Positions 8,183 through 59,246 of a DNA stretch of 64,000 bases are shown here, piece after piece. A model generated the notes under the pieces. It was not told where the DNA came from. It saw nothing but the letters and a program-made list of their open reading frames with translations, and ran no database searches. The position numbers were made by a program, and so were the translations under genes. Numbering within the stretch: position 1 is the first letter of the stretch; each line of letters begins with the position of its first letter. Source of the stretch: a virus (lineage: Duplodnaviria > Heunggongvirae > Uroviricota > Caudoviricetes); the IMG/VR virus record IMGVR_UViG_2700989044_000001, positions 11,683-75,682 of that record. One strand, written 5' to 3'.

Positions 8183-8929
8183 ATGTACAAAATAGCTATT
8201 TGTGCTGGTCATGGTTTCAACACTCCTGGTAAGAGAACTCCAGATGGTGAAAGAGAATGGAGCTTTAACAATAAGTTAGTTGTTGCTTTCGTTAACACTA
8301 TGAATCAGTATGAGAATGTTACTGTTAAGCGTTATGATGATCCAACGGGTAAAACTGACGTGCCTTTAATTACTCGTACTAATGGGGCAAACGCTTGGGG
8401 AGCAAACATCTACATTTCATTCCACCACAACGCTAATACTGCTAAATGGGGTACTTGGACAGGTGTTGAAACTTTCTACTATCCAGGTTCTACGACTGGA
8501 TTGAACTTAGCTAAAGCTATTCACCCAGCAGTTGTTCAATCTTATGGATTGAAAGATAGAGGCGTTAAGTCTGGAAATCTTCACATCGTTAGAGAAACAA
8601 AAATGCCAGCTATTTTAATCGAAGGTGGATTCATGGATTCTACTATCGATATTAAAAAACTTAGAAGCGACGCTGTATTAAAAGCTGCTGGTGAAAACAT
8701 TGCTCATGCTGTAGCTAAGTACGCTGGTTTAAAGAAAAAATCTTCTACTTCTACTCCTAAACCGCCAACTCCTACTACTCCAAATGCTGCAACTTACACT
8801 GTAGTTAAAGGAGATACTCTGTATGGAATTTCTCAAAAATTTGGAATCAGTGTCGATACTATCAAATCATTAAATGGTTTGAAAACTAATACTATCTCTA
8901 TTGGGCAGGTATTAAAGGTAAAAAAGTAG
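8183..8929 (+). CDS. N-acetylmuramoyl-L-alanine amidase (Amidase_3) with C-terminal LysM domain
   Basis: N-terminus IAICAGHG...PG motif typical of CwlA/Amidase_3; C-terminus YTVVKGDTLYGISQKFGISVDTIKSLNGL is a LysM repeat; RBS AAGAGGTGA. Confidence 0.85.
   Translation: MYKIAICAGHGFNTPGKRTPDGEREWSFNNKLVVAFVNTMNQYENVTVKRYDDPTGKTDVPLITRTNGANAWGANIYISFHHNANTAKWGTWTGVETFYYPGSTTGLNLAKAIHPAVVQSYGLKDRGVKSGNLHIVRETKMPAILIEGGFMDSTIDIKKLRSDAVLKAAGENIAHAVAKYAGLKKKSSTSTPKPPTPTTPNAATYTVVKGDTLYGISQKFGISVDTIKSLNGLKTNTISIGQVLKVKK
8920..8926 (+). other. A_AAA_AAG slippery heptamer (candidate -1 frameshift site) at amidase stop
   Basis: Sequence A AAA AAG in the amidase zero frame immediately before TAG; the -1 frame continues open into the glucosaminidase ORF. 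Confidence 0.5.
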
Positions 8930-9186
8930 AAGATGTAACTGCTGATAGTTTCTATCGAGTTTTTGTTAATGGAAAACAGGTAGGCGCATTTTCAGTTAAA
9001 GAGAATGCTTATGAAGACGGTTGGAAACAATATAATTCTGGAAAAACAGATGCTTATTTAGTAGAACCAAATGGTAGTAAATATACTTTCAACGCTCACC
9101 AATCTGAAAACCCTAACAAAAAACAAGACGAAACTAATTCTACAAAAAACCCTATTTTAGGTAAATCAGTAGTTACATCTAGTCAA

Positions 9187-9852
9187 ATGGTAACTCTTGT
9201 AAAATCAAAAAACCCTAATGCTAAAAATATTGAAGAAATTGCTGAAGCCTTCTTAAAGGTTGGCGAAAAATACGGACTTCGTGGAGATATTGCATTTTGT
9301 CAGTCAATTATCGAAACGGGTTGGTTTAGATTTGATGGCGGTACTGCGGTTACTCCAGATCAACATAACTATTGCGGACTTGGAGTTACGAGTACGGGTA
9401 TTAAAGGAGCTGTATTTGCCACTATTAAAGATGGTGTAACTGCACAAATACAACATCTTTATGCTTATGCTACTAAATCGGCACTACCAGCTGGAGAAAC
9501 TCTATTGGATCCAAGATTCCAATACGTTACAAGAGGTATAGCTCCAAATTGGGAAGATTTAAGTAATAGATGGGCTATGAATGCTAATTATGGAACTCAA
9601 ATCTTGAATATGTATAATCAATTATTACAAGTTCCTGCATCTAATACTTCTCCTGAAAAACCAAATACACCAAAACCTAAAGAAGAAAAAAAGGATGTTC
9701 TTTTTACACATTCAGAAATCAACAATAAACAATATGCTTCTGTCGTAATTGACGGAAAAGGATATATAGCGGTTTCAGATGTTGCAGATTTACTTGATTT
9801 AAAAGTAGTATTTGACAAGGTTACTAAAGAAATTATCTTCATTAAAAAATAA
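9187..9852 (+). CDS. peptidoglycan hydrolase, glucosaminidase-domain (LytD-like); frame open upstream to 8926 without a start codon
   Basis: AFCQSIIETGWF...YCGLG glucosaminidase motifs; same frame is stop-free for 86 codons upstream and encodes a SPOR-like segment (YRVFVNGKQVGAFSVKENA). Confidence 0.7.
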   Translation: MVTLVKSKNPNAKNIEEIAEAFLKVGEKYGLRGDIAFCQSIIETGWFRFDGGTAVTPDQHNYCGLGVTSTGIKGAVFATIKDGVTAQIQHLYAYATKSALPAGETLLDPRFQYVTRGIAPNWEDLSNRWAMNANYGTQILNMYNQLLQVPASNTSPEKPNTPKPKEEKKDVLFTHSEINNKQYASVVIDGKGYIAVSDVADLLDLKVVFDKVTKEIIFIKK

Positions 9853-46901: not shown

Positions 46902-46972
46902 GCGTTTATAGCCAAGTGGTAAGGCCTCGGTCTGCAAAACCGATATCGCGAGTTCAAATCTCGCTAAACGCT
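46902..46972 (+). tRNA. tRNA-Cys (GCA)
   Basis: Cloverleaf read by eye; anticodon loop CTGCAAA; T-loop GTTCAAATC; similar to Bacillus tRNA-Cys. Confidence 0.85.
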
Positions 46973-46979
46973 TTATAAT

Positions 46980-47055
46980 GGCTCCGTGGTGTAGCGGTTA
47001 ACACGCCTGCCTGTCACGTAGGAGATCGCCGGTTCGAATCCGGTCGGGGCCGCCA
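46980..47055 (+). tRNA. tRNA-Asp (GTC)
   Basis: Anticodon loop CCTGTCACG, T-loop GGTTCGAATCC, encoded CCA. Confidence 0.85.
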
Positions 47056-47084
47056 TTAAGTATTTAATGGAAAGAGGTGAAAAC

Positions 47085-47396
47085 ATGTCTAAAGCGTCTA
47101 TGATTGCTAAAATGCTACAAGAGGGTAAAACTATCGAACGTTATAAAGAGGCAGGAAATAGTATGTTACCTATTTTAAAGTCGAAACAACCAGTAACTTT
47201 AGAACCAGTTACTATTGATATTGTTTTAAAAGAAAATGATATTGTGTTTTGTAGAGTGAAGGGTAATTACTATACTCATAAAATCACTGGAATAAGAAAC
47301 AATCAATATCAAATTTCAAACAATCGTGGTTTTGTTAATGGTTGGATATCAAGAGATAAAATCTTCGGTAAAGTTACAAAAATTTGGGATAAATAA
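47085..47396 (+). CDS. S24/S26-like peptidase domain protein (LexA/signal-peptidase fold)
   Basis: GNSMLPIL resembles the GDSM/GSMxP catalytic Ser motif; ATG after AGAGGTGAAAAC. Confidence 0.4.
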   Translation: MSKASMIAKMLQEGKTIERYKEAGNSMLPILKSKQPVTLEPVTIDIVLKENDIVFCRVKGNYYTHKITGIRNNQYQISNNRGFVNGWISRDKIFGKVTKIWDK

Positions 47397-47431
47397 CTTA
47401 CAAAAACAGTTTAATAGTGAGGAGAATTATG

Positions 47432-47557
47432 ATGATGCATAAGATTGATTGGTTATCAGTAAAATTATTATGTTTAGGTGGCATAGTTACTATTGCATTA
47501 ACTGAATTAGCTATAATTATAGCTCACACTATTATCTGGAGTGGTATGGATGTATAA
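47432..47557 (+). CDS. small membrane protein (41 aa)
   Basis: Not in ORF track; RBS AGTGAGGAGAATT; single TM helix. Confidence 0.35.
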   Translation: MMHKIDWLSVKLLCLGGIVTIALTELAIIIAHTIIWSGMDV

Positions 47558-47613
47558 TTTAAAGAAGTTCCTTATACATACCGATAGTTTTAAAAAAGGA
47601 ACTTTATAATAAC

Positions 47614-47689
47614 GGAGGAGTAGCTCAGTTGGTAGAGCGGCAGATTGAAGATCTGCGCGTCGGGGGTTCAAGTCCCTTTTCCTCCACCA
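47614..47689 (+). tRNA. tRNA-Phe (GAA)
   Basis: GGAGGAGTAGCTCAGTTGGTAGAGC D-arm; anticodon loop TTGAAGA; CCA encoded. Confidence 0.85.
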
Positions 47690-47694
47690 TATAT

Positions 47695-47779
47695 GGGGAG
47701 ATAGACCGTAAGTGGAAGCGGGCAGGACTGTAAATCCTGTGAGAAATCCTTGGGTGTTCGATTCGCCCTCTCCCCACCA
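47695..47779 (+). tRNA. tRNA-Tyr (GTA)
   Basis: Anticodon loop ACTGTAAAT, long variable arm, CCA encoded, 85 nt. Confidence 0.8.
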
Positions 47780-47792
47780 TTTTATTAATTAT

Positions 47793-47868
47793 GGCGCGTT
47801 AGCCAAGTGGTAAGGCATCCGGCTTTCTACCGGAGATTACACGAGTTCGAACCTCGTACGCGCTACCA
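47793..47868 (+). tRNA. tRNA-Glu (TTC) (anticodon assignment tentative)
   Basis: Bacillus tRNA-Glu-like architecture; anticodon loop CTTTCTA gives TTC but carries an unusual pyrimidine at position 37. Confidence 0.55.
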
Positions 47869-47873
47869 TTTTT

Positions 47874-47948
47874 GCCGGTTTAGCTCAGCGGTAGAGCGCT
47901 CCCCTTGTAAGGGAGATGTCGTGGGTTCAAATCCTATAACCGGCTCCA
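47874..47948 (+). tRNA. tRNA-Thr (TGT)
   Basis: GCCGGTTTAGCTCAGCGGTAGAGC; anticodon loop CTTGTAA. Confidence 0.85.
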
Positions 47949-47972
47949 TGTTATTTTAAAGGAGGAATTCGC

Positions 47973-48176
47973 ATGATATCTAAGCTTATCAATTTGTTTT
48001 CTAGAAAGAAAACTCCCGCTGAATTAGTCCGATTAAGAAAAGTAAGCAATTTAGAATCGCAAGGTGATATGATGTCAGGAGTTATTAGACAATACCAACA
48101 AATGAATAATAAACAAATGGCTAATCAGATTTTAAAAGAATCTATTGAACCATTAAAGAAAGCTAAATTTAAATAA
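47973..48176 (+). CDS. hypothetical protein
   Basis: ORF after AAAGGAGGAATTCGC. Confidence 0.45.
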   Translation: MISKLINLFSRKKTPAELVRLRKVSNLESQGDMMSGVIRQYQQMNNKQMANQILKESIEPLKKAKFK

Positions 48177-48440
48177 TATTTGCAGGTTGTAAGTGGAATG
48201 ATAGCCACTAGAATCCATATAGCACAACGAAAACATGAGGTAGCTCCTCATTCGTCTTAGGTGAACCTCCCTGTGCAAAAGAGAGTTTGATTCTCTCCAC
48301 CTGCTCCATATATGTCATCGGTAGTTTAAATAGAATAGGCTTAGATAATCTGCGACCAAAAGATAGTGGACCTAAGTTCTAAGAACAGTCCCATTGTGAT
48401 GGGGAAAGTTAAGGTGCGATTCCTTATCGAGACACCATTC

Positions 48441-48530
48441 GGAGGGTTACTCTAATTGGTAAGAGAACAGTCTTGAAAACTGTCGTAGGTATAAAAGCCG
48501 ATGGGGGTTCGAGTCCCTCACCCTCCGCCA
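48441..48530 (+). tRNA. tRNA-Ser (TGA)
   Basis: Anticodon loop CTTGAAA, 20-nt variable arm, 90 nt. Confidence 0.8.
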
Positions 48531-48552
48531 TATAATTTATTAGGAGAAATCT

Positions 48553-48858
48553 ATGAAAAAATATGAATTTAAAGTTAAAGGATATGTTATTCACTCCACT
48601 TTAAAGGAGTTTTTCCCTAATAATAAAATTGTTTATACAATTGACTGTTATTCTTTAACTGGAAGAAATTGGTGTGATTCTGTTGTCACAAATAGTATTG
48701 CATTTAGAGTAAATTGGGATGAATATAGTAAAATTATGCAAGCTAATTTTAATTGTGTTTTTAAAAAAATGAAATTATATTATGGATCTTACGATGAATG
48801 TAAAAGGGCAATTGAATTTTCAAAAACTCTTATTGTTATGAATAAATTGTTAAAATAA
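48553..48858 (+). CDS. hypothetical protein
   Basis: ORF after TAGGAGAAATCT. Confidence 0.4.
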   Translation: MKKYEFKVKGYVIHSTLKEFFPNNKIVYTIDCYSLTGRNWCDSVVTNSIAFRVNWDEYSKIMQANFNCVFKKMKLYYGSYDECKRAIEFSKTLIVMNKLLK

Positions 48859-48919
48859 ATATCAGAAGATAATTGTATTCGAGATATGTCGGTTCAATTC
48901 CCAAATCTTCTAATTATAT

Positions 48920-48997
48920 AGGGGATTAAAGATAATTGGATAATCGTCTGGCCTCCAAAGCCATGATACGCGGGTTCGATTCCTGCATCCCCTGCCA
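48920..48997 (+). tRNA. tRNA-Trp (CCA) candidate with atypical D-arm
   Basis: Acceptor AGGGGAT/ATCCCCT, anticodon loop CTCCAAA identical to Bacillus tRNA-Trp, T-loop GGTTCGATTCC; no clean D-stem pairing found. Confidence 0.5.
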
Positions 48998-55309: not shown

Positions 55310-55540
55310 ATGGGTATTACATTATATAAGATGAGGAAAATGATAGAAGATCATGAGTATGTTGAAGAAATGATAGATATGAGTGATTGGTATCTTGGTA
55401 AAGTATATTTACGCCTTAAATGTAATGATAAATACATTGCAGATATTTTAAGTGGTAACAATGAATTAGACGAATACATTAAACAAGTCAGTTTACTTGT
55501 GCCGTATAATTGTACTATTGAATATGATATAGAAACATAA
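55310..55540 (+). CDS. hypothetical protein
   Basis: ORF only. Confidence 0.4.
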   Translation: MGITLYKMRKMIEDHEYVEEMIDMSDWYLGKVYLRLKCNDKYIADILSGNNELDEYIKQVSLLVPYNCTIEYDIET

Positions 55541-55593
55541 GCAAACAAATTTTGTTTGCTTTTTTAATAAACATTTTTAAAGGGGATTTGGGG

Positions 55594-55998
55594 ATGTATA
55601 AGGCTACTGGTAAAATAGTATTTAATCCCGTAACAAGAGAAGGAGATATGCCAGATAAGTTATGGTGGGTGATGGTAGAATGCCCTCATGATATTATCGA
55701 ATATTATAGGTATTGGGTAACTAAAAACAAAAACTTTAAAATAAGTTACCCACTATTTGGATCACATATATCTATCATTAGGAACGAAGAGCCACCTGAT
55801 GAATTTAAACACTTGTGGGGTAAGAGAAATGGTATGGAAGTTGAGTTTACCTATACTCCAGACTTTGAAACAAACGGAAACTACTGGTGGTTAAAAGTGG
55901 ATTGTCCACAATTAGATGATATTAGAGAAGAGTTGGGTTTACCTAGAAAGCCTTTTTTTGATTATCATTTAAGTATAGGTAAACTCATAAGGGTATAA
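55594..55998 (+). CDS. hypothetical protein
   Basis: ATG after AAAGGGGATTTGGGG. Confidence 0.4.
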   Translation: MYKATGKIVFNPVTREGDMPDKLWWVMVECPHDIIEYYRYWVTKNKNFKISYPLFGSHISIIRNEEPPDEFKHLWGKRNGMEVEFTYTPDFETNGNYWWLKVDCPQLDDIREELGLPRKPFFDYHLSIGKLIRV

Positions 55999-56049
55999 TT
56001 AACGCAATCAATATTCTTATTAAGTTAAAAAGCAATGGAGGTGTAGTTA

Positions 56050-56268: not shown

Positions 56269-56556
56269 ATGCCAGGCGCTGTTAGATTAAATGATACGTG
56301 TAGTGGACATGACGATTTTGGTTCAAGACCTAATAATCAAGCGAGTACAGACGTGTTTGTGAATGGTAGAGGTGCTCATAGACAGGGAGATTCTTGGGCT
56401 GTACATTGTAACCCTGTTCCATCATGTCATGGCGGCAATGCTGCAAATGGAAGTCCTAATGTTTTTGTAAATGGAAAACCAATGTGTAGAATTGGTGATA
56501 GCGTGAATTGTGGTTCCACAATGGTTAATGGTTCGAGTAATGTTTTTGTTAATTAA
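56269..56556 (+). CDS. PAAR-repeat domain protein
   Basis: VFVNGRGAHRQGDSW...C...VFVNGKPMCRIGDSVNCGS...VFVN repeats typical of PAAR spike-tip proteins; ATG after AGAGGTGAAAG. Confidence 0.6.
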   Translation: MPGAVRLNDTCSGHDDFGSRPNNQASTDVFVNGRGAHRQGDSWAVHCNPVPSCHGGNAANGSPNVFVNGKPMCRIGDSVNCGSTMVNGSSNVFVN

Positions 56557-56584
56557 ACATTAATAGAGAAGAGGTTAGTAATAG

Positions 56585-56821
56585 ATGGGTATATTTGAAG
56601 AGATTTCTACATTTATTAAGATGGTTATTAAATCACCTATGAGAATAGTTTGTAAGAGAAAAAAAGATCATGATTGGTATAAACGTGGTGGTGGTTTTAA
56701 CATTTTTGGAACTAAATACCCTTATATTTGCAAAAAATGCGGTTGTAGAAGTAATGGTACCTTTGATGATTTAAAGAAGAAAGGGTTTAAAGGTAAAGCG
56801 AAAATTTATATTAAAAAATAA
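56585..56821 (+). CDS. small zinc-ribbon protein
   Basis: CKR...H...CKKCGC; RBS AGAGGTTAGTAATAG. Confidence 0.4.
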   Translation: MGIFEEISTFIKMVIKSPMRIVCKRKKDHDWYKRGGGFNIFGTKYPYICKKCGCRSNGTFDDLKKKGFKGKAKIYIKK

Positions 56822-56829
56822 TCTGTTAA

Positions 56830-57345
56830 ATTAGATGACTATTTTACAGATAATATATTTATCAAATAATTGAATTTCAATGCAGTTGACCACGTTTGCA
56901 AGGTGGGTAAACGTAATTTAGTAGGGCTATATCGGTATCGCTGCTGGATATAGGGAAAAATTACGTGGATAAGGACTAGTATCCTCGTGGAGTTCAGCGA
57001 TAGAACAACTTCCCATGTTTGAAATTCAAAATGTCCCTAAGTTGCTAGGGGTTATTGAAAAGCAACCGGGTTAGAGAGGCTCATATAAGATACGGTATGA
57101 GTTGTAAGAGCTAAGAAGCCATTGTAAATTCTCTAATCAGGAGTGATGTTCACATGATAGGGCTTAGTGAACTAAATAAAATATGCTTAGTATCAATAAA
57201 TTTAAGAGGTGAGAACAATGTAGTACTTAACTGTGCTATTACCCCTATTTTCACAATTTTTAACGGGGGATTCCTTTTCAAGTTTGTTCTTAATAAACTT
57301 TGAGCCGATCGATGGTTAAAAGACGGAAAATTGTAAATAATTAAG
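56830..57345 (+). ncRNA. candidate large structured noncoding RNA / leader upstream of guaC
   Basis: ~520 nt free of ORFs with multiple nested perfect helices (AAACGTAATT...AATTACGT, CTATATC...GATATAG, GGATA...TATCC); ends in a terminator. Confidence 0.4.
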
Positions 57346-57375
57346 CTGTCCTTCTGCGGAAGGACTAATTTTTTG
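57346..57375 (+). terminator. rho-independent terminator immediately upstream of the guaC RBS
   Basis: GTCCTTC-TGCG-GAAGGAC followed by T6. Confidence 0.75.
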
Positions 57376-57402
57376 TCAAAATTATGTTCTAGGAGTGTAG
57401 AT

Positions 57403-58386
57403 ATGAATAACGTATTTGATTATGAAGATATTCAATTGGTACCAGCAAAGTGTATAGTTGAGAGCCGTTCCGAGTGTGATACATCTATTAGTTTAGGGAA
57501 TCGAAAATTTAAATTACCAGTAGTTCCATCTAATATGCAAACGATTATTGATGAGAAAATAGCTGCTTATTTAGCAGAAAATGGCTATTTCTATGTAATG
57601 CATAGATTTGAACCCGAGACTAGACTTGATTTTATTAAAGATATGCAAACTCGCAACTTATATGCTTCTATTAGTGTTGGTGTAAAAGAAGAAGAGTATC
57701 AATTTATTAATCAATTAGCTGATGAAAAACTTGTTCCAGAATATATCACTATTGATATAGCTCACGGACATTCTAATGCTGTTATTAAAATGATTCAACA
57801 TATAAAGAAGATGTTACCAAATAGTTTTGTTATTGCTGGTAATGTTGGTACACCTGAAGCTGTTCGTGAACTTGAAAATGCAGGCGCAGATGCTACAAAA
57901 GTTGGTATTGGCCCAGGTAAAGTATGTATTACTAAAATCAAAACTGGTTTTGGTACTGGCGGCTGGCAGTTAGCTGCATTGCGTTGGTGTTCAAAAGTAG
58001 CTACTAAACCAATAATTGCTGATGGTGGTATTCGTACTAACGGTGATATTGCTAAATCTGTACGTTTTGGCGCTTCAATGGTTATGATTGGTTCGCTATT
58101 TGCGGGTCACGAGGAATCACCAGGTGAGACGATAGAAAAAAATGGTAAATTATATAAAGAGTATTTTGGATCCGCTTCTGAATATCAAAAGGGTGAAAAG
58201 AAGAACGTTGAAGGAAAGAAGATACATGTAGAATGTAAAGGGAGTTTGAAAGATACGTTGATTGAAATGGAACAAGATCTTCAATCTTCAATTTCTTATG
58301 CTGGTGGTAAAGATTTATTAGCAATTAGAAATGTAGATTATGTCGTTGTTAAGAACTCCATTTTCAATGGAGATAAAAGTTATTAG
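57403..58386 (+). CDS. guaC: GMP reductase
   Basis: [25 protein letters not shown]...[11 protein letters not shown]...GGIR; ~328 aa without CBS domains (GuaC rather than IMPDH); ATG after TAGGAGTG (ORF-track TTG 57373 rejected); recalled Bacillus GuaC is very similar. Confidence 0.85.
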
Positions 58387-59147: not shown

Positions 59148-59182
59148 AATAAGTTGTTTTAAGAAAGATTATTTGATGTATA

Positions 59183-59218
59183 TAGGATATAGCTAGTTTA
59201 GCTATATCCTATTTTTTT
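59183..59218 (+). terminator. rho-independent terminator
   Basis: AGGATATAGCTA-GTT-TAGCTATATCCT followed by T7. Confidence 0.8.
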
Positions 59219-59246
59219 GATTTTAATATTGAAGAGGGTGTTTATA

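Follow-up and report, generated by a model that had tools for sequence, protein, structure and literature searches.

A GC-rich non-coding gap ending in an intrinsic terminator before guaC of Bacillus phage G, a possible orphan RNA unit

Between gp119 and gp120 (GMP reductase, guaC) of Bacillus phage G (NC_023719.1) lies an unannotated 581-bp gap, the ~550-nt feature considered here, which is non-coding, differs in base composition from the ordinary spacers of this phage, and ends in an intrinsic terminator. The reading that we tentatively prefer, and regard as possible rather than probable, is a stand-alone orphan non-coding RNA unit of the phage, ~0.5 kb in length. The initial annotation had described an ORF-free, highly structured RNA ending just before guaC, with ROOL, GOLLD and riboswitch or attenuator leaders among its candidate identities. 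What stood was a non-coding unit with anomalous GC content and a terminator, but exceptional structure lacked statistical support and the named families did not hold. The third candidate of the initial annotation, a novel regulatory RNA of the phage, may still apply. Positions refer to the window, the whole 64,000-nt stretch of DNA that was analyzed (window position = record position - 11682), unless marked as record positions. Genes are tightly packed in this part of the genome, and the gap is the largest ORF-free stretch in the window, tRNA-bearing gaps excepted.

Table 1. Features of the gap and its flanking genes, in window coordinates
Feature	Position	Strand	Description
gp119	56585-56821		Gene 5' of the gap; stop at 56821
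AT-rich lead-in	56822-56879	+	GC 0.17; holds the sigma-A-like promoter candidate
Sigma-A-like promoter candidate	TTTACA 56843-48, AATAAT 56865-70	+	16-nt spacer; 10/12 match; predicted start ~56877
GC-rich non-coding core	56880-57149	+	41% GC; three-base periodicity absent
Predicted domain 1	56871-57029	+	Multi-branch fold with a perfect closing helix of 10-11 bp; contains the hairpins of the initial annotation
Additional 11-bp perfect helix	56870-80 / 57019-29	+	Longest helix
Helix ACGTTT / AAACGT	56893-98 / 56909-14	+	Named initially, present
Helix ACGTAATTT / AAATTACGT	56911-19 / 56958-66	+	Encloses CTATATC / GATATAG
Inner helix CTATATC / GATATAG	56927-33 / 56947-53	+	Named initially, present
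Helix GGATA / TATCC	56968-72 / 56981-85	+	Named initially, present
Predicted domain 2	57053-57198	+	Contains the three-way junction
Predicted three-way junction	57066-57141	+	Helices 57069-77 / 57130-38 and 57079-86 / 57095-102
Lower-GC 3' portion	57150-57347	+	GC 0.31; two local hairpins; A-rich, unstructured sequence leads up to the terminator
Longest ORF in the gap	57154-57303	+	49 aa; ATG; GGAG 9 nt upstream
Hairpins of the 3' portion	57220-26 / 57233-39 and 57281-88 / 57292-99	+	Predicted
Intrinsic terminator	57348-57375	+	7-bp stem with 4 G-C pairs, UGCG loop, then UAAUUUUUU
guaC (gp120, GMP reductase)	57391-58386 including RBS	+	RBS AGGAG 57391-95; CDS 57403-58386; ATG 57403

Coding potential of the gap

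The gap does not code for protein. The initial claim that it lacks an ORF was borne out, as no ORF of at least 50 aa was found on either strand and no frame has positive coding potential. With a three-periodic Markov model trained on the ORFs of the window and scored per 120 nt, real neighboring genes reached +10 to +20, whereas positions 56830-57340 stayed at or below 0 in all six frames. GC content by codon phase in 56880-57149 was flat (.43/.39/.41, p=.83), compared with a GC3 of.11-.22 in equal-length stretches of the flanking genes, and no residual codon periodicity was detected in any sub-window of 150-270 nt. Searches with translations of the gap gave the same picture: six-frame stop-free pieces, concatenated, had no match at E<=10 among 5.8 billion proteins, comparison with Pfam, PHROGs and NCBIfam returned noise only (E=0.16-0.23), and tblastn against GenBank phages recovered phage G itself only.

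The longest ORF in the gap invites the explanation that the product is a small protein of 49 aa, whose mRNA would resemble those of type I toxins in its long structured 5' UTR and would end at the terminator. This ORF is preceded at the correct spacing by a Shine-Dalgarno-like AGGAGTG, a heptamer found in identical form before guaC, its C-terminal half is hydrophobic, and the terminator starts 45 nt past its stop. Its coding score, however, is -5.6 against +15 to +19 for neighboring phage G genes of 67-84 aa, and its GC content by phase is not gene-like. No protein relatives were found in Pfam, PHROG, NCBIfam or 5.8 billion proteins, and the annotators did not call it. A small protein would also leave the GC-rich 270 nt upstream unexplained. 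With regard to a type I toxin-antitoxin pair, the ORF has an RBS, and no Rfam antitoxin RNA matched the gap. The ORF is probably not a gene, and we give the small-protein explanation very little credence.

Base composition of the gap and of guaC

Base composition is the strongest and most informative signal in these data, and by this measure the gap is not an ordinary phage G spacer. Within the core, 111 of the 270 bases are G or C (P=4e-10 versus 24%), while ordinary intergenic gaps in the window have 17-26% GC with a maximum of at most 0.29 in any 100-nt window, and third codon positions in phage G are at ~20% GC. Elsewhere in the window, GC-rich gaps are limited to those bearing tRNAs and to the segment at 8930-9186, which is coding by way of an annotated frameshift. 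Genome-wide, 165 ORF-free gaps of at least 100 nt were compared by their maximum 100-nt GC content, for which the median is.25, the 90th percentile.39, and the value of the guaC gap.44. Fourteen other gaps reach.40, comprising seven with tRNA or tmRNA, one with a sub-threshold YrlA, one between this YrlA match and the Ro60/TROVE gene, two that flank a homing endonuclease, and a remainder that is unexplained. As the composition of the gap resembles that of phage G RNA genes, it may be a non-coding RNA outside the known families.

The neighboring guaC gene provides a measure of how far composition has drifted at this locus. Its product shares 84-87% amino acid identity (~79% at the DNA level) with the chromosomal GuaC of many Bacillaceae and Clostridium, and among the 120 best-scoring proteins listed no phage relative was present, all being chromosomal proteins of Bacillaceae or Clostridium. 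By its sequence, guaC thus appears clearly to have been acquired horizontally from Bacillaceae. Its GC3 is 0.198 against a phage median of 0.201, so that the acquired gene has fully adopted the composition of the phage, and identity and converged GC3 together point to an old host-to-phage transfer of GMP reductase. The conversion of G to A nucleotides by this enzyme makes sense for a phage of 30% GC. Since guaC is fully phage-like, unconstrained DNA of equal age would be expected at ~20-25% GC.

Several other ORF-free segments of phage G were noted during these comparisons. The 257-nt gap at 8919-9186 has no in-frame start codon, a coding-like GC content (0.32) and a position behind an A AAA AAG slippery site, and it links an amidase/LysM ORF (8183-8929) to a glucosaminidase-like ORF (9187-9852); as GenBank annotates gp23 as a two-piece joined endolysin CDS, this is a known programmed frameshift. 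About 2 kb upstream of gp540, the TROVE/Ro60 gene, a GC-rich island free of ORFs holds a YrlA-like match at record 405233-405319. This match is unannotated, and with 36.2 bits (E=1.2e-5) it falls short of the Rfam gathering score of 69, at which it is missed. GC-rich ORF-free segments (maximum.42-.45) at record 241543-241746 and 243218-243534 flank the homing endonuclease gp330, which sits between the DnaE-like polymerase gp329 and gp331, a short ORF annotated as a DNA polymerase. The gp329-gp331 region looks like an intron or a split gene, and no Rfam intron match was obtained there even at E<=1. Four further ORF-free islands with a maximum 100-nt GC content of.43-.48 (spacers ~.22) are located at record 198401-198697, 452530-453568, 471371-471589, which is just upstream of the transposase gp662, and 492195-492403. 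Rfam at the gathering score had no match to these four islands, which may be additional unannotated RNA genes.

Predicted structure

All of the helices named in the initial annotation are present where it had placed them, together with the longer helix that closes the first domain (Table 1). Several helices in the gap have pair probabilities above 0.9. In domain 1 most helices fall between 0.75 and 0.99, with a z-score of only -1.1 for the inner part, and the three-way junction of domain 2 has pair probabilities of 0.98-0.99 and a folding energy of -21 kcal/mol (z=-2.8, for an element that was picked after the fold had been seen). The nesting described initially was recovered in part: an isolated 60-mer folds in this way (z=-2.8), but in the full-length RNAfold prediction the CGTAATT/CTATATC nested hairpin is replaced by a pairing of 56916-24 with 56941-49.

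The description of the region as highly structured was not supported by the folding statistics, which are ordinary. For the whole gap (555 nt) the minimum free energy z-score is -2.4 (+ strand) or -2.3 (- strand), so the two strands are alike, and sliding 160-nt windows in the gap range from -0.1 to -2.2, no better than neighboring coding DNA (-4.3 at 55840-55999). Perfect stems of at least 7 bp number 10, against 4.8 +/- 2.2 in dinucleotide shuffles (P=0.03), a modest excess of about twofold, and the longest stem in the gap has P=0.085 against the shuffles.

Comparison with RNA families

Rfam 15 was searched with the whole window at the gathering score and with positions 56700-57500 at E<=10 under permissive filters. 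No family was assigned to the gap, which gave three chance matches only (E 4.6-6.2). In particular, ROOL (RF03087) and GOLLD (RF01998), as well as the purine, PRPP/ppGpp/ykkC and T-box leaders that had been proposed as candidates, produced no covariance-model match at the gathering score or at E<=10. No YrlA signal was found in the gap at E<=10, and ARAGORN detected no tRNA or tmRNA in 56500-57600, the nearest tRNAs being located at 46902-48994, ~8 kb away. Because the permissive mode of Rfam does recover the divergent YrlA of phage G (E=1e-5), the failure to match the gap carries some weight; as Rfam also misses the probable intron region, such a failure is not proof that there is no RNA. On general grounds the gap resembles an RNA gene, in that a coding signal is absent and the composition is RNA-gene-like in an AT-rich genome.

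Other identities for the gap were considered and dropped. A MITE was set aside since the 11-bp terminal inverted repeat has no second copy, an intron since both flanking genes are complete, a replication origin since the GC content is too high and there are no iterons, and a Y RNA since that of phage G is located elsewhere. On inspection by eye alone, neither a tetraloop receptor nor domain V of a group II intron was convincing.

Terminator, read-through and promoter candidate

The terminator GTCCTTC-TGCG-GAAGGAC (57348-57365) followed by TAATTTTTT was recovered by a terminator scan, with a pair probability of 1.0. It does lie just before guaC as first described, but the distances are slightly different: the T-run ends 17 nt before the RBS, and the stem ends 38 nt before the ATG. 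It is oddly placed, without an ORF to terminate: it starts 527 nt past the stop of gp119, whereas, of 20 terminator-like hairpins on the + strand of the window, 18 start within 35 nt of an ORF stop. Two further terminators, at 55539-55571 and 59182-59222, are found ~33-35 nt before the start codons of gp116 and gp123, which leaves no room for a promoter. From these it follows that in this neighborhood a terminator closes the preceding unit, and is not a switch, and that the downstream genes need read-through. The gap, by analogy, looks like a unit the size of a gene that carries a terminator of its own. The arrangement implies that terminators are leaky and operons are read through in this nucleotide-metabolism block. 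As the terminator of the gap lies directly before the RBS of guaC, again with no room for a promoter, transcription of guaC must cross it.

An intrinsic terminator immediately upstream of a gene is a general feature of attenuation leaders, and a riboswitch or attenuator controlling guaC had been among the initial proposals. The gap would then be a cis-acting 5' leader of guaC, either a riboswitch or a protein-dependent attenuator, in which the core senses, for example, a guanine nucleotide and sets the level of read-through. In addition to the placement of the terminator, several observations are consistent with such a leader: enzymes of purine interconversion, to which the guaC product belongs, are often controlled by riboswitches, the composition of the core is constrained, and phage G encodes gp582, a NusG-like antitermination factor. 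The absence of any Rfam match described above argues against it, as does the absence of an evident antiterminator, since in constrained folds the blocking of either terminator arm cost 9-11 kcal/mol and gave no alternative helix that was coherent; the 45 nt that precede the terminator are also unstructured. The ~200 nt of low-GC sequence that separate the core from the terminator are unlike known expression platforms. Moreover, no Rfam family was found within 2.5 kb of 20 donor-type guaC loci from Bacillaceae and Clostridium, the upstream regions of these genes are short (median 247 nt) and AT-rich, and gp116 and gp123 have their terminators in the same position without any leader. We therefore consider a guaC leader improbable.

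The scan found no terminator separating the gap from the stop of gp119, and transcription is therefore likely to run in from upstream. This is compatible with the gap being a long 3' UTR or a processing or stability element of the gp116-gp119 transcript, or a recruitment site for processive antitermination, and the leakiness that must be ascribed to terminators in this stretch, along with the NusG-like factor of the phage, would suit such a role. At every other operon end in the window, nevertheless, the terminator lies no more than 35 nt past the stop codon, and no known antitermination RNA family matches the gap; we view a role of this kind as highly doubtful.

If the gap is instead a unit of its own, the sigma-A-like promoter candidate in the AT-rich lead-in is a possible site of initiation. 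Promoter-like sites occur at chance level (21 versus 19.2 in shuffles). The start predicted from this candidate, ~56877, coincides with the rise in GC content but falls within 56870-80, the 5' arm of the longest helix, which it would truncate. A literature search did not find a transcriptome or expression study of phage G.

Search for homologs and paralogs

Searches for relatives of the gap covered phages, plasmids, metagenomes and bacterial guaC loci. With blastn against GenBank phages only phage G itself was recovered, plasmids gave nothing, and an alignment-based scan of IMG/VR found no relatives. Five metagenomic relatives of gp119 were found, on contigs that share no synteny with this locus and hold no similar RNA, and two single-sequence covariance models of the gap had no match to these contigs. 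Comparison with the flanks of 80 bacterial guaC loci by nhmmer, blastn and tblastx yielded nothing; a 13-nt match recurs at the guaC 3' end, but represents a single chance event common to homologous loci. Five 17-18-mers of the gap were searched for exactly in IMG/VR, of which four had no match and the fifth had 24, and one 18-mer had three chance matches in metagenomes. The 18-mer with exact matches in 24 IMG/VR contigs is CGGTATCGCTGCTGGATA, and all of these contigs come from a single, unrelated family of GC-rich phages with a coding segment in common. As they are a single family, many matches can come from a single chance event.

Paralogs were sought in the whole phage G genome with nhmmer, including --max, and with the two single-sequence covariance models, which returned the gap itself and one match at E~0.1 in the helicase gp400. 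Short matches to the rest of phage G are AT-rich 13-19-mers only, the best being a 17-mer at record 441985. This 17-mer, GAAAATTGTAAATAATT, at 57326-57342 is identical to record 441985-442001, just past the stop of gp600, where a TATATAAT box comes next, with a GC-rich stretch after it, in a 372-nt gap before gp601. The shared 17-mer may be a chance occurrence in AT-rich DNA, or a signal before another non-coding unit. Because no homolog or paralog was found by any search route, the gap is an orphan, or singleton.

A sequence of this kind could also be non-functional, a decayed gene remnant or foreign DNA that entered beside guaC or later, with the terminator a leftover and the GC content a mark of youth. 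The gap abuts a gene that appears to be horizontally acquired, it is without relatives in any homology search, its folding stability is unexceptional, and the terminator just past the 49-aa ORF could be the relic of a former gene. A remnant of a gene would, however, be expected to show some of the codon periodicity or the translated similarity that was absent in sub-windows of 150-270 nt and at permissive thresholds, respectively, and DNA brought in with guaC some similarity to the flanks of the 80 bacterial loci. Given that guaC is already phage-like, a neutral flank acquired with it should be AT-rich by now, and phage genes are otherwise tightly packed. A more recent and independent foreign insertion would also explain the high GC content without function. 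In our assessment a decayed insert is unlikely, if less so than a guaC leader.

Interpretation

On the reading that we prefer, the gap would be a non-coding transcription unit on the + strand, giving rise to an RNA of ~0.5 kb or to a processed core of ~290 nt, with the 3' end of the RNA set by the intrinsic terminator. Selection on the RNA itself, presumably structural, would keep the GC-rich 5' part at 56880-57149 at 41% GC. The RNA would most probably act in trans, by binding proteins or serving as a scaffold, rather than as a ligand-sensing leader. Expression of guaC, which lacks its own promoter, would depend on read-through of the terminator, as would that of the two neighboring genes that lie ~35 nt behind terminators. 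From the sequence of the gap we infer its transcription, the start of the RNA, the fold and the action in trans.

A bolder proposal, on which we place somewhat less confidence than on the orphan RNA unit itself and which we consider rather unlikely, is that the gap is the founding singleton of a new class of phage RNAs that are large, structured and GC-rich, with a length of ~290-500 nt, and that it maybe also gates read-through into guaC. If true, such an RNA gate would couple the conversion of guanine to adenine nucleotides to a signal sensed by the RNA.

Jumbo phages carry many RNA genes, and those of phage G include a tmRNA and a Y RNA besides tRNAs. In Firmicute phages, the function of large ornate RNAs is a puzzle that recurs. 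The gap is a concrete candidate for a new phage RNA, sited where the expression of a host-derived purine enzyme could be governed. Its value is limited by its being a singleton, which may prove to be a young and decaying insert. Since it stands alone and its folding statistics are unremarkable, the gap is a reasonable candidate for experiment, and not a discovery.

Comparison with known systems

ROOL and GOLLD, large ornate RNAs found in Firmicutes as well as in their phages, are, like the gap, phage-borne, free of ORFs and several hundred nucleotides in length, and they have multi-branch domains of the sort predicted for the gap. They are frequently found beside tRNA genes in phage or prophage DNA, whereas the gap does not adjoin the tRNA array (46.9-49 kb) but lies ~8 kb downstream of it. 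The gap also differs in having no match to their covariance models at E<=10, in being shorter, with a core of ~290 nt, and in having no relatives, where ROOL and GOLLD are widespread families.

With the purine (RF00167), PRPP/ppGpp (ykkC subtype 2) and T-box (RF00230) leaders the gap shares a position before a purine gene and a terminator just before the RBS. It differs from them in the absence of a model match and of an antiterminator, in the 200-nt spacer between core and terminator, and in its far greater length, and donor-type bacterial guaC genes have no such leader.

Y RNAs are encoded adjacent to Ro60 (PMC4201824). The YrlA of phage G is likewise a non-coding RNA in a GC-rich ORF-free island, but it lies beside the TROVE/Ro60 gene and can be recovered with Rfam at E=1e-5, whereas the gap is 336 kb away and is without a YrlA signal.

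In the GC-IGR approach of the Breaker laboratory, long GC-rich intergenic regions in AT-rich genomes have reportedly led to structured non-coding RNAs, and candidates are said to be accepted only after covariation has been seen in homologs. The gap differs from accepted candidates in that no homologs of it were found, but it resembles GC-IGR candidates in being among the longest gaps of the genome and in having a GC content well above that of the genome's intergenic DNA.
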